This document shows positions 1,018 to 17,220 of a DNA stretch of 17,220 bases, piece after piece. Position 1 is the first letter of the stretch; every line of letters begins with the position of its first letter. A model generated the notes under the pieces. The model did no database searches. It was not told where the DNA came from and saw nothing but the letters and a program-made list of their open reading frames with translations. The position numbers and the translations under genes are program-made. The DNA comes from a virus (Duplodnaviria > Heunggongvirae > Uroviricota > Caudoviricetes): IMG/VR virus record IMGVR_UViG_2609460354_000003; one strand, written 5' to 3'.

Positions 1018-2064
1018 TTACCCAAGCACGCCAGTTGCAAAGGCGTGATCAAGAAAACGAAAAATTAAATCAACCTGAGAACCATGCTTTTCTTCGAACG
1101 CCAGAGGATCCGCATGAAGCTCGTTGTGATGCTCCCGACACAGCGGTAGCGTGAAAATATCGTGAGATTTTGTCCCCATTCCGCCCTGACCATGACCAAT
1201 CAGGTGATGGGGATCGTCGGCTGGCTTACCACAACACGCACACGGCTGTGTCTTCACCCAGCGTGTGTATTTCTCGTTAACCCAGCGGCGACGTTTAGGT
1301 CGTTTCATGAAAGATTCCGGAGACTCAGGATCAACGGCAATGCTGACCACCGTCTCTTCCTGTGGCGGGGTTTGCTGGTGGGCGTGAGGCAGCGGCGCAA
1401 GATTTTTTGTGCGCTGCTTCAGTATGCTGGTGGCGGTCTGCTCTCCCGGTACGATGTCGCTTTCACGGTACATTGAGCGGATTTTTTCCGCACGCAACCC
1501 CAGCGAACGACGTAATACCGCTTCCGGTAGCGCGTCCGCCACCTGATTGCGGACCGCCCACCAGGATAATTCAGCCAGCGATAATTCCCGTTCCTGCGAG
1601 CCATTCATTGCATGGCGTATGACGTCAATCATCCATGCAGACAGGTTTTGGTGAGCAAGTTGCCCGAGTGATTCGGAGGTCTGGTCGCGCAGCTGGTTGT
1701 CGCAGTGCCAGCACAACACCATTGCGCCGGTACCATAACGGTGAATGACGGTTTCACTGTGGTGATAATCGCCGTGTGGCCACTGGCAGGATTTAACATG
1801 GCGCAGTAACCAGTCAGACAATGCGCCAGCGCCACCAGCAGCACGAATCACTCGTTCGTCGCTGAAAAATGGCAGTAATGATTTATCCTCCGCCAGCGGC
1901 TGGCGAACGGCAGGAACGACCCCGGACGGCAGATTACGCATGCTTTTCGGTTCCGGCTCCACCAGTACCCGGGTATTGTGGAATACCGGCATGGATTCAC
2001 GGCCCGGCTTAACGATCACCAGCCCGAGTTCCGGTACCAGAACAGGTCGAAGTAATACCCGCAC
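1018..2064 (-). CDS. DUF968-like phage protein with C-terminal HNH-like Cys/His motif (YdfU-like)
   Basis: 348-aa ORF with GTG start preceded by GGAGG. C-terminus CACCGKPADDPHHLIGHG...CREHHNELH resembles an HNH zinc motif. Family name from memory. Confidence 0.55.
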   Translation of the reverse strand: MRVLLRPVLVPELGLVIVKPGRESMPVFHNTRVLVEPEPKSMRNLPSGVVPAVRQPLAEDKSLLPFFSDERVIRAAGGAGALSDWLLRHVKSCQWPHGDYHHSETVIHRYGTGAMVLCWHCDNQLRDQTSESLGQLAHQNLSAWMIDVIRHAMNGSQERELSLAELSWWAVRNQVADALPEAVLRRSLGLRAEKIRSMYRESDIVPGEQTATSILKQRTKNLAPLPHAHQQTPPQEETVVSIAVDPESPESFMKRPKRRRWVNEKYTRWVKTQPCACCGKPADDPHHLIGHGQGGMGTKSHDIFTLPLCREHHNELHADPLAFEEKHGSQVDLIFRFLDHAFATGVLG

Positions 2065-2065
2065 G

Positions 2066-2449
2066 TTACCTCCAGATGCGTTGCTGGAATGTGCGGGACG
2101 GACGCCTGACGGAGATTATCCAGTGACGATAATCGAGGCTGAGGGCTTTCTTAATCTCGTATCCGTGTCTGCGGTAGCACTGAATTAGCCACTCGGCCTG
2201 TTCTTCAGTGCATGGGGGATGCTGGAACCAGTCAGATTTGAAAGTGCGGGAACGCCGCCCGTGCCTGCTGGCAGGGGCGGCAGAGTTATCCGAATTGTAA
2301 AATTTGGTATCGTGCGCCATCTGTTTTCTCTGCTGGCGCAGCAGGTGCCAGTTGTTCAGGCTGACGGATGGATTGTAAACCAGAACGACCAGAAAAAACA
2401 AAACCCGCCGAAGCGGGTTAAGTGCGGGTGCGTTGAGGATGCCTGACAC
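2066..2449 (-). CDS. Hypothetical small protein between DUF968 gene and hok (Rem-like by position); true start may be ATG at 2320 (84 aa)
   Basis: ORF-track frame. No convincing SD at 2449. Internal ATG at 2320 would give MAHDTKFYNSD... Basic protein, function unknown. Confidence 0.4.
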   Translation of the reverse strand: MSGILNAPALNPLRRVLFFLVVLVYNPSVSLNNWHLLRQQRKQMAHDTKFYNSDNSAAPASRHGRRSRTFKSDWFQHPPCTEEQAEWLIQCYRRHGYEIKKALSLDYRHWIISVRRPSRTFQQRIWR

Positions 2450-2487
2450 ATCAGCGGTGGCGAGGGATTTCTCCCCCGCCGGGTCTC

Positions 2488-2643
2488 TTACTCCTCAGGT
2501 TCGTAAGCTGTGAAGACAGCGACCTCCGTCTGGCCGGTTCGGATTCGTACCTCGCAGAGGTCTTTCCTCGTTACCAGTGCCGTCACTATGACGGTTAAAC
2601 AGATGACGATCAGGGCGATTAACATCGCCTTTTGCTGCTTCAT
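2488..2643 (-). CDS. hokD: Hok/Gef-family type I toxin (HokD/RelF-like), 51 aa
   Basis: Hand translation from ATG 2643: MKQQKAMLIALIVICLTVIVTALVTRKDLCEVRIRTGQTEVAVFTAYEPEE, stop TAA at 2488-2490. AAGGAGAAG SD upstream. Below the 60-aa cutoff of the ORF track. Matches HokD/RelF as recalled. Confidence 0.85.
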   Translation of the reverse strand: MKQQKAMLIALIVICLTVIVTALVTRKDLCEVRIRTGQTEVAVFTAYEPEE

Positions 2644-2901
2644 AGCCTGCTTCTCCTTGACCTTTCGGTCCGTAAGAGGCTAATCTCTATGTGTCGCATA
2701 GATATGGCCTCAGATTAATGTTAAGCGTCTTGCAGGACGCGTAATGTTAACTGGGGCTTTTCTCTATCTGCCTTTTGGTGTTCATGCCTGAGACAGATAG
2801 CCTCAAGCACCCGCAGTCATTCTACTTAACTAAGATTTCCCCGCAAACCGTTTTTGTCCGGCACAGTAAATATCCAACTAAACCAATGGCGTTCGCTGTA
2901 T

Positions 2902-3081
2902 TTACCGCCAGTATTCAATGCACATGACCGCCATGAACACCCCTAAAAAAAGGGCATTTATATATCCAAATATTAATATCAAAACATCAACTTTTTCCAT
3001 ATACCTTGCTGTGAAGATGATGGGCATACATGATACGAACAACCAGAACGCAACAAACAAAAACTGCAATGCGTTTTTCAT
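2902..3081 (-). CDS. Small predicted membrane protein (59 aa, two hydrophobic helices), unknown function
   Basis: Internal ATG at 3081 of the 72-aa ORF is preceded by AGGAGG. Product MKNALQFLFVAFWLFVSCMPIIF...LILIFGYINALFLGVFMAVMCIEYWR is strongly hydrophobic. Lies in an AT-rich island. Confidence 0.4.
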   Translation of the reverse strand: MKNALQFLFVAFWLFVSCMPIIFTARYMEKVDVLILIFGYINALFLGVFMAVMCIEYWR

Positions 3082-3310
3082 TATTCCTCCTACAATCAAT
3101 GTGCAATTACATTTAAACACACCTCAATTTGGCCGGACATATAAATATCTAAACCAGAAAAAATCACTTACATAGCGTTACAAACTCTTTAGTCTAAATA
3201 TTCATCGTAAAACATTCCCCATACTTATCAGCCCGTTCTGCGCCAGGTAGCTCATTGCCTTATCTGGGAATCTGTAATCAGGTTTCCGGATGCTGGTGGA
3301 TTTTCGCGTT

Positions 3311-3568
3311 TTAGTTGTTCATAAAAGTGCACAGCTTTAACCAGTTCTTCTGATGTAACCGGGACTGGCGGGGCAGTGAATAAGGCCTGAATTTCATAGT
3401 TCGGCCTGTCGTTACAATCCTCTTTTTTCGGTACATATTTCCAGTCACCAGACCACTACTTCCCCTGAAAGTCCGTAACGCCTTTTTTTTCACGTAGCGA
3501 TATCGCCATGCCACTGTTTTTGCTTCCCCCGCCGTTTCATGCCCTTCCTGATAATTAACCTCGCTCAT
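3311..3568 (-). CDS. Hypothetical basic protein (85 aa); N-terminus MSEVNYQ resembles Ead-like N-termini
   Basis: ATG 3568 overlaps the stop of the upstream small ORF (ATGA). Contains an A8 homopolymer (3483-3490), but neither a +1 nor a -1 shift there gives a longer frame. Confidence 0.3.
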   Translation of the reverse strand: MSEVNYQEGHETAGEAKTVAWRYRYVKKKALRTFRGSSGLVTGNMYRKKRIVTTGRTMKFRPYSLPRQSRLHQKNWLKLCTFMNN

Positions 3569-3741
3569 TCATCGCCCCACTCATCACAATATGCTTCGAC
3601 CGGAGTTTTTCCTGCTTCATAATCATCACGCCATGCTTCAGCATCAGCAGCACTGCCACCACGTAACTCTGCATAGTCCATTAACAGTTCATGCCATGCT
3701 TCAAAACTGACGTTGTATTTAGTTGAACCAAAATCAGCCAT
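3565..3741 (-). CDS. Hypothetical small acidic protein (58 aa)
   Basis: Hand translation MADFGSTKYNVSFEAWHELLMDYAELRGGSAADAEAWRDDYEAGKTPVEAYCDEWGDE. Coupled to genes on both sides. Below ORF-track size cutoff. Confidence 0.3.
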   Translation of the reverse strand: MADFGSTKYNVSFEAWHELLMDYAELRGGSAADAEAWRDDYEAGKTPVEAYCDEWGDE

Positions 3742-3916
3742 TTTGCTCTTCCTCTTCGTCTTTTATTTCGTGATATGAGTAATTGCAGTAGTTAAAGAAA
3801 ATATCTTTTGCTTCGTCATGTATTTCATCAGGCGTCGCATCATCATCCACTTCGAATTCATCCTCGAAATCTCCACCGGCTATTCCCGTTTCAATAATTA
3901 TTTTAAACTTTCGCAT
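3734..3916 (-). CDS. Hypothetical small acidic protein (60 aa)
   Basis: ORF-track ORF, very acidic (DFEDEFEVDDD, KDEEEEQ). AGGAGG plus a GC hairpin lie upstream. Confidence 0.35.
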   Translation of the reverse strand: MRKFKIIIETGIAGGDFEDEFEVDDDATPDEIHDEAKDIFFNYCNYSYHEIKDEEEEQNG

Positions 3917-4009
3917 TTAACTACCGCCCTTTCGGGCGGCCTCCTGATGTTCTGATGGTGCAGAAATCCCTCCGGTTAAGGATTAAATTTTTAACAGAGC
4001 TAAATTTAA

Positions 4010-4366
4010 TTATTCAGTTCTGGATTTTGTCGCCCTGCGTATCCGCGCTTTCGCGTTACGCTCAATCTGAATTAGCTTTTCTATATTTTTTCGCCTTTCC
4101 CGCTCCTCCTGGCGCAAGTGCCTTACATCATCTGCCAGTCTGGTTTCTCTTTTCGCCACAGAGAGCATCCAGTCAAATGGTTCCACAACTGCACCGCAGA
4201 TTTTACAGCGGACCTGACGCTCTTTTTCGTCAACCCGGACAGAGGCGTGATGACAATATGGTCTTTCCGATGGCTCATAAAGAAAATTAACCTGATTACG
4301 AGGGTCATCCTCTTTTACCGGAAATAAAACGATATTGCTTAACTCATCCTCTGGTTTTATTTCCAT
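4010..4366 (-). CDS. Hypothetical protein with putative zinc ribbon and basic C-terminal helix (118 aa)
   Basis: Start moved to ATG 4366 (GGAGAGGAG SD) within ORF 4010..4423. Motif CHHASVRVDEKERQVRCKICG, then an Arg/Glu-rich tail. Confidence 0.45.
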   Translation of the reverse strand: MEIKPEDELSNIVLFPVKEDDPRNQVNFLYEPSERPYCHHASVRVDEKERQVRCKICGAVVEPFDWMLSVAKRETRLADDVRHLRQEERERRKNIEKLIQIERNAKARIRRATKSRTE

Positions 4367-4487
4367 GCTCCTCTCCTTTGATGCGAATGCCAGCGGTAAT
4401 TGAAGCCTGATAGCTAATTTCACTCACAGTACCGCCTCCTGAAAATTTAATGAACAATTCAATACGTTCTTTGGTAATAGTGGTCAT
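4344..4487 (-). CDS. Small ORF (47 aa), likely recombination-derived chimera
   Basis: TAAGGAGTAACAC-ATG context. N-terminus MTTITKER resembles MITITKGR of gene 4763..5170. C-terminus ITAGIRIKGE matches the C-terminus of Ead-like gene 5684..6433. Confidence 0.3.
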   Translation of the reverse strand: MTTITKERIELFIKFSGGGTVSEISYQASITAGIRIKGEEHGNKTRG

Positions 4488-4497
4488 GTGTTACTCC

Positions 4498-4761
4498 TTA
4501 ACCCGCAGTGCTTTCAACTGATGAGGGGAACAAAATCTTTTCATCAAACCCTGCATTCATATCATGAACAGCAACACACCAATCCATCGACGAACGATTA
4601 TCAAGAGCCTCCATGATTTCATCCATGCGGCGCAGGTCATACAGGTAAATGCTTTTATCGCCAATGGTGTAAAAACCAATTTTTTTCGGTGATGGGCAGC
4701 GATCAAGAACGTCCTGTAATTCGTTCAACCATGCCCGTTCTTTTTTTGTTAAAGTTGCCAT
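4498..4761 (-). CDS. Hypothetical protein (87 aa)
   Basis: Start at ATG 4761 with AAAGGAGAG SD within ORF 4498..4821. No recognisable motif. Confidence 0.5.
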   Translation of the reverse strand: MATLTKKERAWLNELQDVLDRCPSPKKIGFYTIGDKSIYLYDLRRMDEIMEALDNRSSMDWCVAVHDMNAGFDEKILFPSSVESTAG

Positions 4762-4762
4762 A

Positions 4763-5170
4763 TCACTCTCCTTTCCCATGAAGCATAGCGGCGCGGCAGG
4801 CGTTCCATATTTCGGCAGCAATATCGCGCTCGCTATCGGTTAATTTGTACGTGGAAACATAGCCAGAGAGCATTTCTACGTTTTCCGGAGTTGCTTCTTC
4901 CGGCACTATCGGCGCTGGAGGGGCGGCAAATAGATATCCGCCAAAGTCAGGAAGCTCTCCAATGGCCTGTACGAACTTTTGTTTGCCTACGTCAACTCCT
5001 AATGGGTAATGAGCTATAATCTTTGCCACCGGCTCTGCTTCCAGCGATACCAGTGCAATTCGTGCCAGTTCTTCCGCTTCTTCTGCTGGCAGTACAACGT
5101 TGCTACCCGGTCCGTATGTTTCGCGCCACTGCTTGATTGTCAGCAGTCGCCCTTTGGTAATAGTGATCAT
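4763..5170 (-). CDS. Hypothetical protein (135 aa)
   Basis: ATG 5170 overlaps upstream stop (ATGA); AAGGAA SD. Confidence 0.55.
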   Translation of the reverse strand: MITITKGRLLTIKQWRETYGPGSNVVLPAEEAEELARIALVSLEAEPVAKIIAHYPLGVDVGKQKFVQAIGELPDFGGYLFAAPPAPIVPEEATPENVEMLSGYVSTYKLTDSERDIAAEIWNACRAAMLHGKGE

Positions 5171-5682
5171 GCCGCGTTTCCTTCTTTCTTATTAACAATC
5201 ACACCGTCATATATTTCATTAAGGTGCCCTCTCAACTCCATGCGCCTTAATGCAGATAACATGTAATCGCATTCAACCTGCTTATTCCCAGTAAATGGCT
5301 TATCGTCAGGATTACCCCAACAGCAATTACCCCTGGGCCATCCATGTACTTTCCGTACTCTTCCGTTAACAACGTGAAGTAATCCCCAGCCGGGAGGTAA
5401 ATCCTCAACTGAAATAATTTCCGGCTCACTAATAAAGAATCGCCAGTCGCCCATGCCAAGTGAGGGATTTTTACGGAAACGCTTTTTTCTATCTGCCAAC
5501 AAGTCAGCACGAGAACACTTCGCCTCTATCAGGCATGATGCTGAATTTCTGAATCCCATAGCATCTGGCTGTTCTCCGGTACTGGTTACAGCAACAAAGC
5601 GGTCATGAAAGCAAACCTTGAACCCGTTGCGCTTAAGGAACTTGTACGCAATCTGACAGAGTTCGCGGTGTGTTAACGCCAT
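5167..5682 (-). CDS. Hypothetical protein with possible PD-(D/E)xK nuclease-like motif (171 aa)
   Basis: AGGAGAG SD, ATGA coupling. Motif ...DAMGF...CLIEAKCSRAD fits the D...ExK pattern; functional call is tentative. Confidence 0.5.
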   Translation of the reverse strand: MALTHRELCQIAYKFLKRNGFKVCFHDRFVAVTSTGEQPDAMGFRNSASCLIEAKCSRADLLADRKKRFRKNPSLGMGDWRFFISEPEIISVEDLPPGWGLLHVVNGRVRKVHGWPRGNCCWGNPDDKPFTGNKQVECDYMLSALRRMELRGHLNEIYDGVIVNKKEGNAA

Positions 5683-5683
5683 A

Positions 5684-6433
5684 TCACTCTCCTTTGATGC
5701 GAATGCCAGCGGCGCGGATTGCAGCGATGACTTCAGAAACTTTGTATGCCATTACCGTTTGGTAATCATCGTGAAAATCTGTTCGATGAAGCATGCTGCT
5801 ACGTTCCGGGAGCGATATTTCCCGAGCATCCAGTTCCTTAACGCGTTCCTCCAGTTCGTAGACCCTGCATTGTTCTCTATCATCAATCAGATATAACCCA
5901 AGACATTCGCTTTCTACCCAACCGCCAAAATCATGATCGTAACGCTCACATGAAAACTCACCGTCACCGTCCTTTGTTGGAATGGTGTAACTATCTAATG
6001 GGCCACCATATGTCGGCACATTCCCCAATGTTGGATGCTCAATCCACATGAAAAATGCACGTCCGGTTATTGGGCAAATATCTGGCCGCCATTGGTTACG
6101 AACAGCCTTGGTTTCGGATAATTCTTCAGCGTGTTGTTTTACTTCCTCAAGCTCAACTCTCAGCTTCCCTACCGTTAGCGCAATATCCTCGTTCTCCTGG
6201 TCGCGGCGTTTGATGTATTGCTGGTTCCTTTCCCGTTCATCCAGTAGTGCCAGCACGGTTTCTGGTCCGGTCAGAAATTTGAAGGCATTGAGCGCATCAA
6301 TATCCACACCGTAATCTTTAAGTTCCTGTTCACTTAACAAATCATCATCAGTTGGCAACATTAACAGGCGTTCCATTGCTGGAATTGCACGTTCTGCTGC
6401 CTCACGCAGTGCCTGGTAATTAATTTCGCTCAC
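5684..6433 (-). CDS. Ead/Ea22-like early-region protein (249 aa)
   Basis: N-terminus MSEINYQALREAAERA, acidic coiled-coil middle, position in early-left b-region. Family assigned from memory. Confidence 0.6.
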   Translation of the reverse strand: MSEINYQALREAAERAIPAMERLLMLPTDDDLLSEQELKDYGVDIDALNAFKFLTGPETVLALLDERERNQQYIKRRDQENEDIALTVGKLRVELEEVKQHAEELSETKAVRNQWRPDICPITGRAFFMWIEHPTLGNVPTYGGPLDSYTIPTKDGDGEFSCERYDHDFGGWVESECLGLYLIDDREQCRVYELEERVKELDAREISLPERSSMLHRTDFHDDYQTVMAYKVSEVIAAIRAAGIRIKGE

Positions 6434-6873
6434 TGGTTGCCTCCTTTGCGAAGCTCTGCGGCTAAATACTCCAACGCCATTACCGGGACGCCAACAAGCA
6501 CAGTTCCTTTAAACTTCTTATGCAGGTGCTCGATAGCTGTATCCACGCCCTGCGCCCGTACTTCAGCCAGGAAAGCATCGGTGGCCGGAGTTTCAGGAAT
6601 CCGTCTCCTCATCAGTTCTATTGCATGATTGAACCCGAAATCTTCAGCAAGAGATACGTCATCCATATTGTCATTGTCGTCCTCAATATCCCGTGGTTCT
6701 GGAATTGCAGACTTTATTACCGCATTCTCCGCCGCCAGCGCCGCGCACTTGGCCTCAAGAGCGGCAACCACTTCCTGATGGTCTTTGTACTTAACGTATG
6801 AGCCGGAGATGTCATCACCTTCGGTGTTTAGCCATGCGTCATTGCAATTCACTGCGTAGGTTCTGATGCTCAT
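6430..6873 (-). CDS. Hypothetical early-region protein (147 aa from ATG 6873)
   Basis: ATG 6873 has GGGAGAG SD and ATGA coupling to upstream ORF. Acidic segment EDDNDNMDD. Confidence 0.5.
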   Translation of the reverse strand: MSIRTYAVNCNDAWLNTEGDDISGSYVKYKDHQEVVAALEAKCAALAAENAVIKSAIPEPRDIEDDNDNMDDVSLAEDFGFNHAIELMRRRIPETPATDAFLAEVRAQGVDTAIEHLHKKFKGTVLVGVPVMALEYLAAELRKGGNQ

Positions 6874-7055
6874 GTTGATGCTCTCCCGCCCCTGACAGAC
6901 GCCAGGCCAGTCAATAAAGTATCCGCACAATGCCTACCCTCAGACGTGCGCGCAGGATAAATGCCGTTATGACCCGGCAAAATATATGCTACCCATTCAT
7001 CTTGCGTTGCCTGTTCCGCCGCCTCACGCAGTGCCTGAGAGTTAATTTCGCTCAC
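6870..7055 (-). pseudogene. Ead-like N-terminal fragment (61-aa ORF), probable recombination remnant
   Basis: First 16 aa MSEINSQALREAAEQA parallel the N-terminus of 5684..6433. Its 5' DNA (7021-7055) is a near repeat of 6399-6433. The rest of the ORF has no protein-like character. Confidence 0.3.
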
Positions 7056-7273
7056 TTCGAACCTCTCTGTTTACTGATAAGTTCCAGATCCTCCTGGCAA
7101 CTTGCACAAGTCCGACAACCCTGAACGGCCAGGCGTCTTCGTTCATCTATCGGATCGCCACACTCACAACAATGAGTGGCAGATATAGCCTGGTGGTTCA
7201 GGCGGCGCATTTTTATTGCTGTATTGCGCTGTAATTCTTCGATTTCTGATGCTGAATCAATGATGTCTGCCAT
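7052..7273 (-). CDS. TraR/DksA-family C4 zinc-finger protein (73 aa)
   Basis: CCECGDPIDERRR...CRTCASC four-Cys motif in a short phage protein. Confidence 0.7.
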   Translation of the reverse strand: MADIIDSASEIEELQRNTAIKMRRLNHQAISATHCCECGDPIDERRRLAVQGCRTCASCQEDLELISKQRGSK

Positions 7274-7323
7274 CTTCCATTAATCCCTGAATTGTTGGTT
7301 AATACGCTTGAGGATGAATGCGA

Positions 7324-7349
7324 ACAATAAAAAAGGAGCCTGTAGCTCC
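7324..7349 (-). terminator. Rho-independent terminator-like hairpin within the early-left operon
   Basis: On the minus strand, GGAGC-tacag-GCTCC is followed by TTTTTTATTG, just after the stop of gene 7372..7587. Confidence 0.55.
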
Positions 7350-7371
7350 CTGATGATTTTGCTTTTCATGT

Positions 7372-7587
7372 TCACCGTTCCTTAAAGACGCCGTTTAACA
7401 TGCCGATCGCCAGGCTTAAATGAGTCGGTGTGAATCCCATCAGCGTTACCGTTTCGCGGTGCTTCTTTAGTACGCTACGGCAAATGTCATCGACGTTTTT
7501 ATCCGGAAACTGCTGTCTGGCTTTTTTGATTTCAGAATTAGCCTGACGGGCAATGCTGCGAAGGGCGTTTTCCTGCTGAGGTGTCAT
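7372..7587 (-). CDS. Hypothetical protein (71 aa from ATG 7587; ORF extends to 7686)
   Basis: ORF-track frame. Internal ATG 7587 avoids overlap with the methylase gene. No known motif. Confidence 0.4.
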   Translation of the reverse strand: MTPQQENALRSIARQANSEIKKARQQFPDKNVDDICRSVLKKHRETVTLMGFTPTHLSLAIGMLNGVFKER

Positions 7588-7663
7588 TGAACAAGTCCCA
7601 TGTCGGCAAGCATAAGCACACAGAATATGAAGCCCGCTGCCAGAAAAATGCATTCCGTGGTTG

Positions 7664-8221
7664 TCATGCAGCCTCCCGACGGGCAAGAATCCTTGAGCCG
7701 AACGCCATCAACTCTCCACGATCAACGGTCGTAAAGTGGCAGTGTGTACGGGGGTATGGGTGCCAGATAATGAGCATCGAGCCTTTATTATTTCCACTGA
7801 CGGGTTTCTCAGTGAGTGGGTTAATAAATGCCAGTCGTCCTGCCGTGATGAATCTGACCTCACTGGCGGTTTGTATCGCTTCATGAAACCATCCGACAGA
7901 TGTGTCAGCAGGCAATAACATTACACATCCCACACTACTGAATTTGTTTTCAGTGGCTGCCTTTTTCACAAAAGGGGAAATATTGCTGTATGGTGGATTC
8001 AACCAGACATAACCAGAGGCATATCCCATTGCTTCAGGCCATGAAGTGGTTAATGTGTTCTGCTCCTGTGAGATAAAAAGCCGACATAGTCGGTTTTTTT
8101 CGCTGGCGGCAGCATCAAGTTGAAAAACGAACTCTGCATTAAGCGCAGCAAAAATCTCTGGTGGTGTGCGCCAGCTGTCGCGATGTTCGGCAGGAGTATT
8201 GCTTCCGGTGAAATCAGTCAT
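7664..8221 (-). CDS. Phage DNA N6-adenine methyltransferase (Dam-like, orphan)
   Basis: WRTPPEIF...FQLDAAAS and NPPY motifs. No restriction endonuclease candidate nearby. Confidence 0.85.
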   Translation of the reverse strand: MTDFTGSNTPAEHRDSWRTPPEIFAALNAEFVFQLDAAASEKNRLCRLFISQEQNTLTTSWPEAMGYASGYVWLNPPYSNISPFVKKAATENKFSSVGCVMLLPADTSVGWFHEAIQTASEVRFITAGRLAFINPLTEKPVSGNNKGSMLIIWHPYPRTHCHFTTVDRGELMAFGSRILARREAA

Positions 8222-8375
8222 ACAGCCCCCGTTTATTATTTATCGCCTCAGCCAGCCGCTGTGCTTTCAGTGGATTTCTGATAACAGAAAGGCCGGGAAA
8301 TACCCAGCCTCGCTTTGTAACGGAGTAGATGAAAGTGATCGCGCCTACCCGGATATTATCGTGAGGATGCGTCAT
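8214..8375 (-). CDS. Small hypothetical ORF (53 aa) coupled between exo and the methyltransferase
   Basis: ATG 8375 overlaps exo stop (ATGA); its TGA overlaps the methylase ATG. Translation [53 protein letters not shown]. Below ORF-track cutoff. Confidence 0.3.
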
Positions 8376-9052
8376 CGCCATTGCTCCCCAAATACAAAAC
8401 CAATTTCAGCCAGTGCCACGTCCATTTTTTCGATGAACTCCGGCACCATCTCGTCAAAATTCGCCATGTACTTTTCATCCCGCTCAACCACGACATAATG
8501 CAGGCCTTCACGCTTCATACGCGGGTCATAGTTGGCAAAGTACCAGGCATCTTTTCGCGTCACCCACATGCTGTACTGCACCTGGGCCATGTAAGCCGAC
8601 TTTATGGCCTCGAAACCACCGAGCCGGAACTTCATGAAATCCCGGGAGGTAAACGGGCATTTCAGTTCAAGGCCATTGCCGTCACTGCATAAACCATCGG
8701 GAGAGCAGGCGGTGCGCATACTTTCGTCGCGATAGATGATCGGGGATTCAATAACATTTACGCCGGAAGTGAACTCAAACAGGGTTCTGGCGTCGTTCTC
8801 GTACTGTTTTCCCCAGGCCAGTGCTTTAGCGTTAACTTCCGGAGCCACACCGGTGCAAACCTCGGCAAGCAGGGTGTGGAAGTAGGACATTTTCATGTCA
8901 GGCCACTTCTTTCCTGAGCGGGGCTTTGCTATCACGTTGTGAACTTCTGAAGCGGTGATGACGCCGAGCCGTAATTTGTGCCACGCATCATCCCCCTGTT
9001 CGACAGCTCTCACGTCGATCCCGGTACGCTGCAGGATAATGTCCGGTGTCAT
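8372..9052 (-). CDS. exo: Lambda-type exonuclease (Red alpha)
   Basis: 226 aa beginning [37 protein letters not shown], matching lambda Exo as recalled. Sits directly downstream of bet. Confidence 0.93.
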
Positions 9053-9834
9053 GCTGCCACCTTCTGCTCAGTGGCTTTTTGTTTCAGGAATCCAAGAGCT
9101 TTCACTGCTTCGGCCTGTGTCAGTTCTGACGATGCACGAATGTCGCGGCGAAATATCTGGGAACAGAGCGGCAATAAGTCGTCATCCCATGTTTTATCCA
9201 GGGCGATCAGCAGAGTGTTAATCTCCTGCATGGTTTCATCGTTAACCGGAGTGATGTCGCGTTCCGGCTGACGTTCTGCAGTGTATGCGGTATTTTCGAC
9301 AATGCGCTCGGCTTCATCCTTGTCATAGATACCCGCAAATCCGAAGGCCAGACGGGCACACTGAATCATGGCTTTATGCCGTAACATCCGTTTGGGATGC
9401 GACTGCCACGGCCCCGTAATTTCTCTGCCTTCGCGGGTTTTGAATGGTTCGCGGCGGCATTCATCCATCCACTCGGTAACGCAGATCGGATGATTGCGGT
9501 CCTTGCGGTAAATCCGGCATGTACAGGATTCATTGTCCTGCTCAAAGTCCATGCCATCAAACTGCTGGTTTTCATTGATGATGCGGGACCAGCCATCAAC
9601 GCCCACCACCGGAACGATGCCATTCTGCTTATCAGGAAAGGCGTAAATTTCTTTCGTCCATGGATTAAGGCCGTACTGGTTGGCAACGATCAGTAATGCG
9701 ATGAACTGCGCATCGCTGGCATCACCTTTAAATGCTGTCTGGCGAAGAGTGGTGATCAGTTCCTGTGGGTCGACAGAATCCATGCCGACACGTTCAGCCA
9801 GCTTCCCAGCCAGCGTTGCGAGTGCTGTACTCAT
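9049..9834 (-). CDS. bet: Lambda-type Red beta single-strand annealing protein
   Basis: 261 aa beginning [38 protein letters not shown], near-identical to lambda Bet as recalled. Confidence 0.95.
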
Positions 9835-9839
9835 CCGTT

Positions 9840-10136
9840 TTATACCTCTGAATCAATATCAACCTGATGGTGAGCAATGGTTTCAACCATGTACCGGATG
9901 TGTTCTGCCATGCGCTCCTGAAACTCAACATCGTCATCAAACGCACGGGTAATGGCTTTTTTGCTGGCCCCGTGGCGTTGCAAATGATCGATGCATAGCG
10001 ATTCAAACAGGTGCTGGGGCAGGCCTTTTTCCATGTCGTCTGCCAGTTCTGCCTCTTTCTCTTCACGGGCGATCTGCTGGTAGTGACGCGCCCAGCTCTG
10101 AGCCTCAAGACGATCCTGAATGTAATAAGCGTTCAT
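9840..10136 (-). CDS. gam: Gam RecBCD inhibitor (short GamS-like form)
   Basis: 98 aa [60 protein letters not shown]... AGGAGG SD. In-frame upstream sequence has stops, so no GamL extension. Confidence 0.93.
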
Positions 10137-10899: not shown

Positions 10900-11751
10900 T
10901 TACTGAATTTTCCTGAAAATCACAAGAGGAGTCATTCCGTATGCGGTGCTACTGCGGCCTGCTAATTCTTTTATCCCAGAAAGCATTTCTGTTATGCCAT
11001 CTTTCAAAGGGTTTGACGGGAACACAGACATATCGAAAAGTTCTTGGTCATATTCAGGAAGGGCATCGATAAAACCAAGTACGTACCATTCGCCTGGAAT
11101 ACTCCCACCATATTTTAGAACCATATCGTCTGGATTAATGGTGAGGTAATCACGATTAATAGTCATCCAAATGGTTTGACCAAAATCATTAATAAAATCA
11201 ACCTGCAATGTGTTCGGGACAATATTAAGTACTTCTTTCATCATGCCAAAAGTGACACCGGGCGAGACGGGGATTTCGTCAATACTATCATTCGTTTTTT
11301 TTGCTTTTGGCGGTAGCTTGGAGCGTTCTGCCTTTAGCATTTTTGCTACAAACGGGACGCTTTTTTGAAACATGGAAATATCAAAAATACGAACATGGCC
11401 TTTAGATAAAACAGTACTCCCAAGTCTTTCACCATTAAGTTCTGTTTTTATTAGATCATTTTCAGAAAGTTTATCTAAGAGGTTAATAGGAAGCGTCCAT
11501 GAAGCATCATAGCTTTTTTCATGGGTGTAATTGATAGTTTCCTCAACACCAAGTTTTGACTTAATGATTTTAATGTCAAAGCCGGCATCACTTACTGATT
11601 TGTCAACTTCAGCTGTTACCTGTCTGATAGATGTTATTACACCAGGCCCATGCATCTGTGCCAAGAGCGATGATGCCCGCTTGTTATCAACATATAGAAA
11701 ATCATACAATGAATCGGTGGTTTGTGATTCTTGCGCCGCGGATACGGTCAT
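10900..11751 (-). CDS. Unknown 283-aa protein in the cI-downstream (rex-like) position
   Basis: Complete ORF with AAGGAAGAG SD 7 nt before ATG 11751. AT-rich relative to neighbours. Same strand as cI, followed by a terminator. No motif recognised. Confidence 0.7.
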   Translation of the reverse strand: MTVSAAQESQTTDSLYDFLYVDNKRASSLLAQMHGPGVITSIRQVTAEVDKSVSDAGFDIKIIKSKLGVEETINYTHEKSYDASWTLPINLLDKLSENDLIKTELNGERLGSTVLSKGHVRIFDISMFQKSVPFVAKMLKAERSKLPPKAKKTNDSIDEIPVSPGVTFGMMKEVLNIVPNTLQVDFINDFGQTIWMTINRDYLTINPDDMVLKYGGSIPGEWYVLGFIDALPEYDQELFDMSVFPSNPLKDGITEMLSGIKELAGRSSTAYGMTPLVIFRKIQ

Positions 11752-13744: not shown

Positions 13745-14674
13745 ATGGCAAACACTGCTGAGATATTCAATTTTCCAGTGCCGGATGCGGCACAAAAGGA
13801 GCCGCGCGTGGCAGATCTCGATGATGGTTATACGCGCATTGCAAATGAGTTGCTGGAAGCTGTGATGCTGGCCGGATTAACACAGCACCAGCTTCTGGTC
13901 TTCCTGGCTGTCATGCGCAAAACATATGGCTTTAATAAAAAACTGGATTGGGTGAGCAACGAGCAACTGTCCGAATTGACCGGGATATTGCCGCACAAGT
14001 GTTCTGCTGCAAAAAGTGTTCTGGTAAAGCGTGGGATTTTGATTCAGAGCGGGCGGAATATCGGTATTAATAATGTGGTCAGTGAATGGGCAACATTACC
14101 CGAATCAGGTAAGAAAAATAAAGTTTACCTGAAAGAGGTAAATTTACCTGAATCAGGTAAGAAAAGTTTACCCAAATCAGGTAAAGGCGTTTACCCGAAT
14201 CAGGTAAACACAAAAGACAAACTAACAAAAGACAATATAAAACCTTTTTCGTCCGAGAATTCTGGCGAATCCTCTGACCAACCAGAAAACGATCTTCCTG
14301 TGGTGAAACCAGATGCTGCAATTCAGAGCGGCAGCAAGTGGGGGACAGCAGAAGACCTGACCGCCGCAGAGTGGATGTTTGACATGGTGAAGACCATCGC
14401 GCCCTCAGCCAGAAAACCGAATTTTGCAGGGTGGGCTAACGATATCCGCCTGATGCGTGAACGTGACGGACGTAACCACCGCGACATGTGCGTGCTGTTC
14501 CGCTGGGCATGCCAGGACAACTTCTGGTCCGGTAACGTGCTGAGTCCGGCCAAACTCCGCGACAAGTGGACCCAGCTCGAAATCAACCGAAACAAGCAAC
14601 AGGCTGGCGTGACAGCCGGCAAACCAAAACTCGACCTGACGAACACTGACTGGATTTACGGGGTGGATTTATGA
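13745..14674 (+). CDS. O: Replication initiator O (divergent N-terminal iteron-binding domain, lambda-like C-terminal P-interaction domain)
   Basis: ATG 13745 preceded by GGGAGG. C-terminal half (SGESSDQPENDLPVVKPDAAIQSGSKWGTAEDLTAAEWMFDMVKTIAPSARKPNFAGWANDIRLMRERDGRNHRDMC...) matches lambda O as recalled. N-terminal domain differs. An upstream in-frame ATG at 13655 is an alternative start. Confidence 0.88.
   Translation: MANTAEIFNFPVPDAAQKEPRVADLDDGYTRIANELLEAVMLAGLTQHQLLVFLAVMRKTYGFNKKLDWVSNEQLSELTGILPHKCSAAKSVLVKRGILIQSGRNIGINNVVSEWATLPESGKKNKVYLKEVNLPESGKKSLPKSGKGVYPNQVNTKDKLTKDNIKPFSSENSGESSDQPENDLPVVKPDAAIQSGSKWGTAEDLTAAEWMFDMVKTIAPSARKPNFAGWANDIRLMRERDGRNHRDMCVLFRWACQDNFWSGNVLSPAKLRDKWTQLEINRNKQQAGVTAGKPKLDLTNTDWIYGVDL
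14096..14208. repeat. Origin of replication: five 18-bp iterons inside the O gene, followed by an AT-rich stretch
   Basis: Iterons TTACC(C/T)(G/A)A(A/T)(T/A)(C/G)AGGTAA(G/A) at 14096, 14125, 14144, 14168, 14191. AT-rich 14209-14250. Same architecture as lambda ori. Confidence 0.8.
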
Positions 14675-15742: not shown

Positions 15743-16141
15743 TTATTTGTTCTGTTTTTTCTTGCGGGTTATTCTGATTTGTTTTGATTTGATTTTTTCT
15801 GACAAAAGTAGGGAAAAAATATGTCGCAAGTACTTTCTGTCTTTACCTCCTAAATTACATTCTCTATCAAATGTTGCCATAGTTATGACCCCAGTTTTAT
15901 ATAGTGTTTCAGCAATTTTTCTGTAGTTTTTTTCTCGCAAAATTGAAGAGTTTTTCTTTGCTGTATTTTCAAGGCTATCTCCTTGTGGTTTAAGACCATT
16001 TGGGCCAAAAAACGTTGTGGATACTGCTGCACTTGTTGTCCGTTTTTTTTGGCCCATTTGGATAGTACTTGGGAGAGGCATGATTTTAATACGCATATAA
16101 ATAACTCCTCTATCAATTGGATTTTGGGAAAATGTTAACAT
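15743..16141 (-). CDS. Unknown 132-aa protein translationally coupled to the Mnt-like repressor
   Basis: ATG 16141..16139 overlaps the repressor stop (TAATG). Lys-rich C-terminus. A competing 77-aa frame (15883..16116) exists, so frame choice is uncertain. Confidence 0.35.
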   Translation of the reverse strand: MLTFSQNPIDRGVIYMRIKIMPLPSTIQMGQKKRTTSAAVSTTFFGPNGLKPQGDSLENTAKKNSSILREKNYRKIAETLYKTGVITMATFDRECNLGGKDRKYLRHIFSLLLSEKIKSKQIRITRKKKQNK

Positions 16142-16458
16142 TAATCATGATTAAGGAGTAATTTTAAATCTTCCAATAAAATTTGTTTAAACTCTTGTGT
16201 TCTATGATCGATATACAACGCAAGTTTGCTTGCATTATCTTCCAGGTCACGTATCTCTCTGTCACCTCGAATAAACCCAACTAAATTTAAACGTTTAGAT
16301 AGTTCAGAACTTCCTTCTATGGCATCTTGGAGTATTTGAATGATTTCTGAATTCATTGAGCGCCCGTTTCGTTTGGCTCGTTCAGCTATAGCTTCACGCA
16401 TCCCATCAGGGAAACGGAGGTTAAACTTATCGTAGTCTTTTACTTGTTTGTCAGCCAT
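16141..16458 (-). CDS. mnt: Mnt-like ribbon-helix-helix repressor (Arc/MetJ superfamily)
   Basis: From ATG 16458: MADKQVKDYDKFNLRFPDGMREAIAERAKRNGRSMNSEIIQILQDAI... The core FNLRFP...NGRSMNSEIIQILQDAI closely parallels P22 Mnt as recalled, with a C-terminal extension as in Mnt. Confidence 0.72.
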   Translation of the reverse strand: MADKQVKDYDKFNLRFPDGMREAIAERAKRNGRSMNSEIIQILQDAIEGSSELSKRLNLVGFIRGDREIRDLEDNASKLALYIDHRTQEFKQILLEDLKLLLNHD

Positions 16459-16557
16459 TGGAACCCCCAAAAAAATGAATGGTGCCATATTGCCACATCA
16501 ATTCAATGGTGGCATTATGGCCTCATGGTGTCATTGTGGCCTCATGAGGTTATGTCA
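16459..16557. promoter_or_regulatory. Divergent promoter/operator region between Mnt-like and Arc-like genes
   Basis: Inverted repeat TGCCACAT...ATGGTGGCA (about 16491-16515), direct repeats ATTATGGCCTCATGG / ATTGTGGCCTCATGA, and the 10-bp palindrome CCTCATGAGG. Confidence 0.5.
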
Positions 16558-16716
16558 ATGGAAAAGAAAGAGGTAAAAATTACCCTTCGCTATCCGCAAA
16601 AAGTGAAGGATGAATTCAAGCGAATTGCTCAGGAGGAAGGGATGTCTGAGAACGCAGCTATTGTTCAGGCGCTTGTATGGGCATTGAAATTTAGAGCACG
16701 GATACATGCTCGCTAG
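16558..16716 (+). CDS. arc: Arc-like ribbon-helix-helix repressor (52 aa)
   Basis: ATG 16558 with GAGG SD 8 nt upstream. MEKKEVKITLRYPQKVKDEFKRIAQEEGMSENAAIVQALVWAL fits the RHH beta-strand/two-helix pattern. Immediately precedes the antirepressor gene. Confidence 0.65.
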   Translation: MEKKEVKITLRYPQKVKDEFKRIAQEEGMSENAAIVQALVWALKFRARIHAR

Positions 16717-16786
16717 AAACAGCGAAGCCCCACTGGCGGCAACCTTAGGGGCTTCTATCGAAAATAACCGCGAAGGAAATATCGAC

Positions 16787-17220
16787 ATGAGTATTGTAGC
16801 AACATCAGATCTGAACTTCCAAGGTGAAGCACTAGTGCCAGTGGCAAATATTGCCGGAATATGGCTAACTTCATCCAACCTAGCAAGAGCACTGAAGTAT
16901 TCGAATAGTCGCGCAGTCACGATGATTTACAACAAATATGCTGACGAATTTTCCAGTAGTATGACTAGAGTGCTTGAAGTCAGTACCTCAGAGAATGATG
17001 TCGAGGTACTTGATCTGAGTACCTCGAAAAGTACTCGAAACTTGAAGAAGAAAGTACGCGTTTTCTCTCTCCGCGGAGCCCATTTGATCGCCATGTTCGC
17101 CCGCACTCCTGTAGCCAAAGAGTTCCGCCGTTGGGTTCTGGATATTCTCGATCGAGAAGTTCAACAATCCCCAATCATAAAACAATTCACTGATAACGAA
17201 CTTTGCACACTTGCTTGGTT
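16787..17220 (+). CDS. ant: Antirepressor (Bro-N/AntA-family N-terminal domain), 5' part; continues past window end
   Basis: Hand translation from ATG 16787 (AAGGA SD 9 nt upstream): MSIVATSDLNFQGEALVPVANIAGIWLTSSNLARALKYSNSR...RVFSLRGAHLIAMFARTPVAKEFRRWVLDILDREVQQ. No stop before 17220. Absent from the ORF track because it is open-ended. Confidence 0.7.
   Translation, partial: MSIVATSDLNFQGEALVPVANIAGIWLTSSNLARALKYSNSRAVTMIYNKYADEFSSSMTRVLEVSTSENDVEVLDLSTSKSTRNLKKKVRVFSLRGAHLIAMFARTPVAKEFRRWVLDILDREVQQSPIIKQFTDNELCTLAW

Follow-up and report, generated by a model that had tools for sequence, protein, structure and literature searches.

Conserved ends of Ead/Ea22-family genes at the junctions of small accessory cassettes in a lambdoid prophage contig

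The lambdoid prophage sequence analysed here (IMG/VR record IMGVR_UViG_2609460354_000003), referred to below as the window, comprises 17,220 bp and corresponds to the entire draft contig JNPG01000006.1 of assembly GCA_000703745.1. Its region 3300-7056 is predicted to be a dense run of small accessory cassettes of lambdoid type that are coupled in translation, with every gene of the repeat region located on the minus strand (Table 1). Genes of the Ead/Ea22 family (Pfam PF13935, IPR025153) and their wreckage dominate this run: one intact gene (249 aa), one with a +2 frameshift, one collapsed to both of its ends (a mini-Ea22 inside the open reading frame (ORF) ORF47) and one decayed. Two short sequences recur at the gene junctions, a 26-mer at gene 3' ends (3' box) and a sequence of ~35 nt at gene 5' ends (5' box); the 5' box consists of the start codon and the next ~17-64 nt, and overlaps the upstream stop codon. 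A promoter and terminator scan found no promoter-like site on the coding strand of 3200-7400, the counts being below shuffle expectation, and an Rfam search of 2400-7700 with a permissive E-value gave no match to the boxes, its sole match being sok at 2641-2812.

Table 1. Features of the repeat region and its right border, listed in the direction of transcription.
Feature	Coordinates	Strand	Basis
orf73, TraR/DksA-type zinc finger, lambda exo-xis gene normally preceding ea22	7052-7273	-	Pfam, lambda match
5' box copy B, first 11-12 codons (MSEINSQALREA) of an Ead/Ea22 gene	7021-7055	-	exact repeat
Putative crossover interval	7018-7025		parent comparison
Split Ead/Ea22 gene (61-aa ORF 6870-7055 and 147-aa ORF 6430-6873)	6430-7055	-	alignment to intact allele, Pfam
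5' box copy A (MSEINYQALREA), GTG 6431-6433, start of the 249-aa Ea22-like gene	6399-6433	-	exact repeat
Intact 249-aa Ead/Ea22-like gene, ends AAGIRIKGE	5684-6433	-	PF13935
3' box copy 2, (A)AGIRIKGE, with AAAGGAG as Shine-Dalgarno sequence, then TGA-T-ATG of the 171-aa gene	5687-5712	-	exact repeat
171-aa cassette gene (orf171; MALTHREL...), no Pfam family, full-length in 39 loci	5167-5682	-	ORF, Pfam
135-aa gene of the MxTITK / ...ELARIALxSLEAEP... (DUF551-associated) mosaic family	4763-5170	-	sequence comparison
87-aa cassette gene (MATLTKKERAW...)	4498-4761	-	ORF, locus comparison
ORF47, true chimera	4344-4487	-	ORF, locus comparison
3' box copy 1, inside ORF47	4371-4396	-	exact repeat
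119-aa Zn-ribbon cassette gene (MEIKPEDE...)	4010-4369	-	ORF, Pfam scan, locus comparison
Decayed MSEVNYQ gene, with weak third 5' box copy at 3546-3568	3252-3568	-	ORF, locus comparison

Both repeats were confirmed and greatly exceed what chance would produce. The exact 26-mer CTCTCCTTTGATGCGAATGCCAGCGG occurs twice and was found in none of 200 dinucleotide shuffles, and a repeat search of the window extends its similarity to 43 nt at 81% identity. The first-pass annotation, which had noticed this repeat, placed its copies 1-2 nt off (at 4369-4394 and 5688-5713) and let it span the last codons, the Shine-Dalgarno (SD) sequence and the start of a gene junction; the 26-mer does encode (A)AGIRIKGE and include the SD, whereas the stop and the next start fall in the less conserved extension. 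The ~35-nt pattern GCCTCACGCAGTGCCTGNNNNTTAATTTCGCTCAC is exact at the two positions previously given and absent from the shuffles, with similarity stretching to 50 nt at 86% identity. A partial copy had also been claimed at 3546-3568; this one is weak (66% over 50 nt at 3520-3569, ~16/21 in the core, with ~0.04 such matches expected by chance per window according to a binomial estimate), but it coincides exactly with the ATG start encoding MSEVNYQ. A self-comparison of 3300-7300 by k-mers added two further pairs: an 18-nt SD/stop/start junction repeat (GCCATATCACTCTCCTTT) at 4757-4774 and 5678-5695, and a 14-nt repeat at 4469-4482 and 5152-5165 that encodes MTTITK/MITITK N-termini. An additional, fourth Ea22-type start lies within ORF47 (GTG 4425-4427, encoding MSEISYQA), and the Ea22 N-terminal segment has four copies in the window. 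MSEINxQ-type starts and GIRIKGE ends are located at the junctions, as originally described, and chance similarity of SD and start codons does not account for exact repeats of 26 and 35 nt that the shuffles never produced.

Pfam matched PF13935 (cut-off 27) to the 249-aa ORF with 102.7 bits (profile positions 1-121), to the 147-aa ORF with 39.4 bits (profile positions 48-138) and also to the 61-aa ORF; ORF47 and the MSEVNYQ ORF had no Pfam match, and an NCBIfam scan of ten ORFs gave none. The ~35-nt repeat is thus the conserved 5' end (MSEINxQALREAAE) of Ead/Ea22-family genes, and the 26-mer their conserved 3' end (AGIRIKGE). This agrees with the published picture of Ea22 proteins as mosaics that combine a common N-terminal segment and coiled coil with unrelated C-terminal domains (CTDs) and a common K/R-G-E end (PMC10834534, PMC7093339). 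The tandem paralogs of the window, the 249-aa gene and the split ead gene, are alike in their first ~16 codons only (50 nt at 86%), which excludes simple duplication and divergence; a tandem duplication with uniform divergence was ruled out on this ground. As in lambda orf73-ea22 and the Ea22 variants of Shiga toxin (Stx) phages, the TraR-like orf73 precedes an Ea22-type gene whose GTG start (7053-7055) overlaps the orf73 stop codon (7052-7054) in a GTGA, and the start of the 249-aa gene overlaps the stop of the upstream ead gene by the same GTGA. Region 6992-7500 is ~97% identical to lambda orf73 and the start of ea22, which follow each other in lambda lysogens, and the wider lambda-homologous patch around 5' box copy B covers 6992-7056. 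The N-terminus MSEINSQALREAAEQ and the AGIRIKGE tail are likewise shared with lambda ea22, as is, at the nucleotide level, the central segment 6135-6259 of the 249-aa gene (putative coiled-coil island). The window differs from lambda by its tandem family members and remnants, whose bodies are unlike that of lambda ea22, by continuing into hok/sok, DUF968, RusA and Q where lambda has ea8.5, xis and int, and by the location of the nearest relatives of its block in the nin region of Qin-like prophages.

The 3' box (GCTGGCATTCGCATCAAAGGAGAG) encodes AGIRIKGE, and its last codons AAA GGA GAG contain AAGGAG, 6 nt before the next ATG, the following geometry usually being TGA-N-ATG. Set against the well-established anti-SD sequence, the KGE and GGE tails can be read as SD sequences: the GGE variant (AAAGGAGGTGAGTAATG) gives a 10-nt match to the SD consensus, and the K-G-E codons AAAGGAGAG hold an SD that the synonymous AAGGGTGAA would lose while keeping K-G-E. 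Within the window, the 249-aa protein ends with IRIKGE, the mini-Ea22 contains IRIKGE, and the 135-aa protein ends with HGKGE at the same SD-stop-start junction (4757-4774). The split ead gene ends with ...LRKGGNQ, without KGE, and there AAAGGAGG forms the SD of the next gene. The C-terminal K/R-G-E motif (Dydecka 2020), whose +GE tail was noted as universal and of "unknown significance" (PMC7093339, PMC10834534), is common, not universal, in an unbiased set of 91 unique Ea22-type proteins that were chosen by their N-terminus from loci not selected on the 3' box: 53 end with KGE, 13 with GGE and 46 with IRIKGE. In this set the CTDs that IRIKGE tails finish fall into at least six clusters unrelated to one another, across which the last 21-33 nt are identical and synonymous sites conserved at 0.93-1.0; the stop-to-start spacing is 1 nt in 48 of the 53 KGE genes, after which 26 different downstream N-termini follow. 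In a second set, anchored on orf171, all 24 copies are preceded by AAAGGAGAGTGA[T/G]ATG, and three unrelated kinds of protein supply the upstream tail (AGIRIKGE, AAMLQGKGE and NHLRTKGE). Since unrelated proteins that share the junction also share the KGE tail, this tail is most readily understood as the place where the upstream frame accommodates the ribosome-binding site of its coupled downstream neighbour. Such a reading would provide a simple DNA-level account of the Ea22 K/R-G-E tail and is the one modest new idea of this study. The SD gives no account of the remaining 15 nt upstream of it in the 3' box (GCTGGCATTCGCATC), whose synonymous-site invariance points to shared DNA ancestry and recombinational spread.

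The junctions were compared with those of other lambdoid regions by fetching ~240 IMG/VR loci with either box and clustering their 250-nt flanks. The 137 occurrences of the 3' box join 24 left and 16 right clusters in 54 combinations, and the 117 occurrences of the 5' box join 20 left and 33 right clusters in 55 combinations; the same boxes do flank different cassettes in other prophages. In a set of 80 loci anchored on orf73, and thereby unbiased for breakpoints in the box, homology to the window stops between 6992 and 7040 in 80/80 cases, an identical orf73 end being followed by twelve distinct Ea22 bodies that diverge 17-40 nt past the start codon. Over all loci, the endpoints of high-scoring segment pairs (HSPs) concentrate at 4440-59, 4760-79, 5680-5719, 6440-59, 6980-7059 and 7660-79, with intragenic clusters at 5020-39 and 5820-39 as well; many loci share just the first ~45 codons of the 135-aa gene, with a breakpoint near 5036. 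The boxes are thus common to unrelated neighbours, flank different cassettes and coincide with mosaic breakpoints, and recombination at short shared gene ends is supported by these comparisons. The proposal that the repeats are linkers for homologous recombination therefore stands in part: exchange probably occurs at short common gene ends, but dedicated linkers are not what is found, because the boxes are functional coding and translation-initiation sequences whose conservation has a functional explanation. On the whole, the earlier interpretation is partly supported.

One such switch can be located in the window itself. Compared with a Qin-like prophage (L001), the window shows 6 mismatches in 3757 positions (3300-7056), five of which lie at 7026, 7033, 7035, 7039 and 7049. 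It is identical to this nin-type parent up to 7025, to a pL class (L149-type) from 7018 rightwards and to lambda from 7024; the switch is placed at 7018-7025, inside the 5' box, because L001 identity ends and pL-type identity begins there. To the right of 7056 lies a lambda-like immunity, replication and pL region (with Dam, Exo, Bet and Gam upstream of orf73), and to the left a block (1317-7056) with 99.4% identity to L001 and to a second locus (L181), which continues into hok/sok, DUF968, RusA and Q. The closest relatives carry this left block in the nin region, after the replication genes, and the same cassettes are also found in a pL arm with xis and int downstream (L082). The designation "early-left region", used for the block in the first-pass annotation, accordingly fits this contig only, the near-identical block being nin (early-right) in Qin-like prophages. 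Ea22-type starts occur in both arms (60 in nin versus 10 in pL, and 26 in nin versus 31 in pL, in two box-anchored sets), and the same accessory cassettes circulate between both early operons of lambdoid prophages. A side observation concerns E. coli N25, where one canonical lambdoid prophage (L003) carries Ead/Ea22-like genes at 6839-7153 and 16366-16779, in the exo-xis arm and the nin arm respectively and in opposite orientation, an arrangement that might permit the immunity-replication core to invert.

Two origins are conceivable for the join of pL and nin sequences: a genuine rearrangement at the box, between prophages or within one, or misassembly of a draft genome in which two prophages share this repeat. 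The latter, an assembly chimera, has a substantial, though minority, chance of being the correct explanation. The whole window is one draft contig, and no other locus combines upstream pL markers with downstream nin/Q markers. None of 5426 complete E. coli genomes covers ≥80% of 6700-7500, no HSP spans the join in 311 loci, and the hybrid joint at 7056, searched as 74- and 100-mers, is absent from IMG/VR, GTDB representatives and JGI metagenomes; it was not found in 50,697 phage records either. Against misassembly, the 2-8 nt of identity shared by the sampled parents are too short for a misjoin in a k-mer graph, unless the true parents in that strain share a longer exact repeat, many loci carry natural joints of this type at the same position, and the contig is listed in 2 samples that may or may not be independent. 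Equally tentative is the wider proposal that Ea22 ends, oppositely oriented in both arms, might serve as exchange or inversion points that move accessory blocks between pL and pR, the contig having captured a real event in which N...gam-bet-exo-dam-orf73 was joined to a nin-type block ending with RusA and Q, and the 3' box acting as a universal plug-in adaptor that supplies SD, stop and start; if true, this adaptor role would explain the +GE motif.

The remnants show that other processes have also been at work in the block. The 61-aa ORF, thought previously to be a chimeric remnant, is instead the front of one ead gene that was frameshifted, relative to an intact 228-aa allele of an O104:H4 prophage, by the insertion, within 6926-6929, of two nucleotides that read TG on the coding strand. 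The Prokaryotic Genome Annotation Pipeline (PGAP) also calls the 61-aa and 147-aa ORFs separately in L001, and the insertion is a real mutation because this complete genome, 99.8% identical there, carries the same split. The 47-aa ORF, on the other hand, is chimeric as suggested, although not through a linker. Its front (14 codons, 4446-4487) derives from the 5' end of a gene starting with MTTITKERIELFIK..., of a second mosaic family (MTTITKERIELFIKNPLENG...ELARIALASLEAEP..., with DUF551-type C-termini) that has analogous conserved ends and to which the 135-aa ORF belongs; its rear is the collapsed mini-Ea22 (4344-4427), which joins MSEISYQASIT to AGIRIKGE. The joint at ~4445 is an in-frame fusion with just 3-4 nt of microhomology and hence illegitimate, and in at least ten other loci the gene before the mini-Ea22 is a different one, whose ...FYQGNFQEAVL end overlaps it in a GTGA. 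In 3' box copy 1, inside ORF47, no stop follows the GAG codon, and the ORF runs 8 codons further, across the ATG of the Zn-ribbon gene (4367-4369). The MSEVNYQ gene is frameshifted around a T8/A8 run at 3483-3490 (A8 in coding-strand terms) and further interrupted by a stop codon; none of the fetched loci contains it intact. One locus (L013) is in a different reading frame just past this run, which suggests slippage.

Taken together, these comparisons favour, with a probability of about 0.72, the view that the boxes are functional ends of Ea22 genes used opportunistically for the recombinational swapping of cassettes, and not purpose-built linkers. The boxes are near-identical in nucleotides, synonymous sites included, among genes with otherwise unrelated bodies. 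They would act as patches of ~17-65 nt at which homologous or homeologous recombination, as suggested by the comparative patterns, exchanges bodies and neighbouring cassettes, possibly by lambda Red, encoded in the same operon (8372-9834), or by RecA. Because the boxes carry the stop/SD/start geometry, every recombinant would keep it and stay expressed, and recombinants and boxes would be kept in circulation. The region also owes its form to illegitimate joining (4445) and to decay by frameshift. Several points weigh against this opportunistic exchange. All evidence for recombination comes from comparative patterns, and most of the ~310 (311) loci were chosen on the boxes, the key tests being limited to smaller, feature-unbiased subsets. 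The exact 3' box, at 26 nt, is at or below the minimal homology of ~30 bp quoted for Red and RecA (PMC2327257), and the crossover at 7018-7025 has a three-way identity of 2-8 nt within a patch of 39-65 nt that is ~87% identical. The nucleotide invariance of the boxes could partly come from selection on the mRNA (SD and coupling) and not from recombinational spread; the 3' box of lambda itself, followed by TGAGATC without a start codon, indicates that the box can persist without a function in SD or coupling. Finally, at least one joint (4445) is clearly illegitimate.

The boxes might instead be kept only for the peptides that Ea22 proteins need at their N- and C-termini, mosaicism arising elsewhere and recombination having no part in their conservation. 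The N-terminal segment does lie within the Pfam Ead_Ea22 model and is shared among Ea22 variants (PMC10834534), and the +GE tail has been called universal (PMC7093339), yet a peptide requirement accounts poorly for synonymous sites of the 3' box that are 93-100% invariant over at least six unrelated CTD clusters, for KGE tails that also finish non-Ea22 proteins upstream of orf171, and for breakpoints located within the boxes; this explanation is unlikely. About as improbable is random illegitimate joining followed by selection for joints at gene boundaries (the Hendrix/Juhala model), which would make the boxes incidental. The microhomology of 3-4 nt at 4445 and the endpoint clusters inside genes (5020-39 and 5820-39) are of the kind that this model predicts, and the debate is acknowledged as open (PMC3945230); most endpoint clusters, however, match patches common to both parents, the breakpoints are graded within the 65-nt homeologous patch, and the cluster of five mismatches shows a switch inside a shared box. 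Repeats at cassette boundaries also bear a superficial likeness to those of integrons (attC) and shufflons, cassette systems served by dedicated site-specific recombination. Here the boxes are direct and coding, have no inverted-repeat or hairpin structure and no Rfam match, no integrase or Rci-type recombinase is encoded in or beside the block or elsewhere in the contig, and breakpoints are graded over 17-64 nt with no fixed point; such a system is effectively refuted, lacking both recombinase and inverted sites.

Short conserved boundary or linker sequences, in keeping with modular (Susskind-Botstein) evolution of lambdoid phages, were reportedly described for HK620 by Clark et al. in 2001. 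The boxes resemble these linkers in being gene-boundary sequences that are common to unrelated neighbours and at which mosaic breakpoints lie, and differ from them in being coding gene ends with translation signals, not separate elements. The window also has much in common with relaxed recombination of the Red/Rad52 type (Martinsohn 2008, PMC2327257; De Paepe 2014, PMC3945230): the operon itself encodes Exo, Bet and Gam (8372-10136), the partners include blocks of Qin/Rac-type prophages, and the mosaics are bordered by diverged homology, or traces of homologous recombination (HR). Lambda has been shown to exchange sequences with defective prophages in a Red-dependent manner, about a third of mosaics showing HR traces (PMC3945230); the patches in the window, however, measure 17-65 nt at ~87-100% identity, as against experimental substrates of 650-3350 bp. 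The joint at 4445 is like the illegitimate joints of HK97 and HK022 (Juhala/Hendrix 2000), from which the joints at the 5' and 3' boxes differ by lying in sequence shared by the parents. Both kinds of joint are found within 3 kb, which bears on the old debate whether mosaics arise from short shared sequences or from random joining. The locus is a clear example of known phage mosaicism in a known gene family and no new system, the mosaicism of Ea22 and its +GE tail having been published before, and the general picture of lambdoid mosaicism is unchanged.

Outside the repeat region, the window is cut within the Q antiterminator gene at its left end and within a Bro-N gene at its right end, and joins, on a single strand, a lambda-like pL operon to a nin-type block (hok/sok, DUF968, RusA, Q). 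The hok/sok type I toxin-antitoxin module occupies 2488-2812 (minus strand), with an Rfam sok match of 106.7 bits at 2641-2812 and a 51-aa HOK_GEF ORF at ~2488-2643. The 93-nt gap that separates the Zn-ribbon gene from a DUF7167 gene holds a GC-rich stem-loop without T-run (CCGCCC-TTTC-GGGCGG, 3921-3939), and a further cluster of HSP endpoints, at 3900-3979, overlaps this gap. A terminator-like hairpin with a T-run is found at 7333-7351 (minus strand), on the coding strand just upstream of orf73. A Dam-type N6-adenine methyltransferase gene (7664-8221, minus strand) takes the place of lambda orf60a/orf63/orf61, with a sharp mosaic breakpoint at ~7667 (87 HSP endpoints in 7660-7679). A DUF6414 gene (283 aa; 10900-11751, minus strand), which lies where lambda has rexAB, between the N/kil region and a cI-type repressor, may be a moron or serve in prophage-encoded defence. 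Four iteron-like repeats (TTTACCYGAATCAGGTAA), spaced ~19-48 nt apart at 14089-14212 within the O replication gene, presumably mark the replication origin. Downstream of P/ren, region 15743-17220 carries an Arc-like ribbon-helix-helix gene (16141-16488, minus strand) and the Bro-N gene that runs off the right end.

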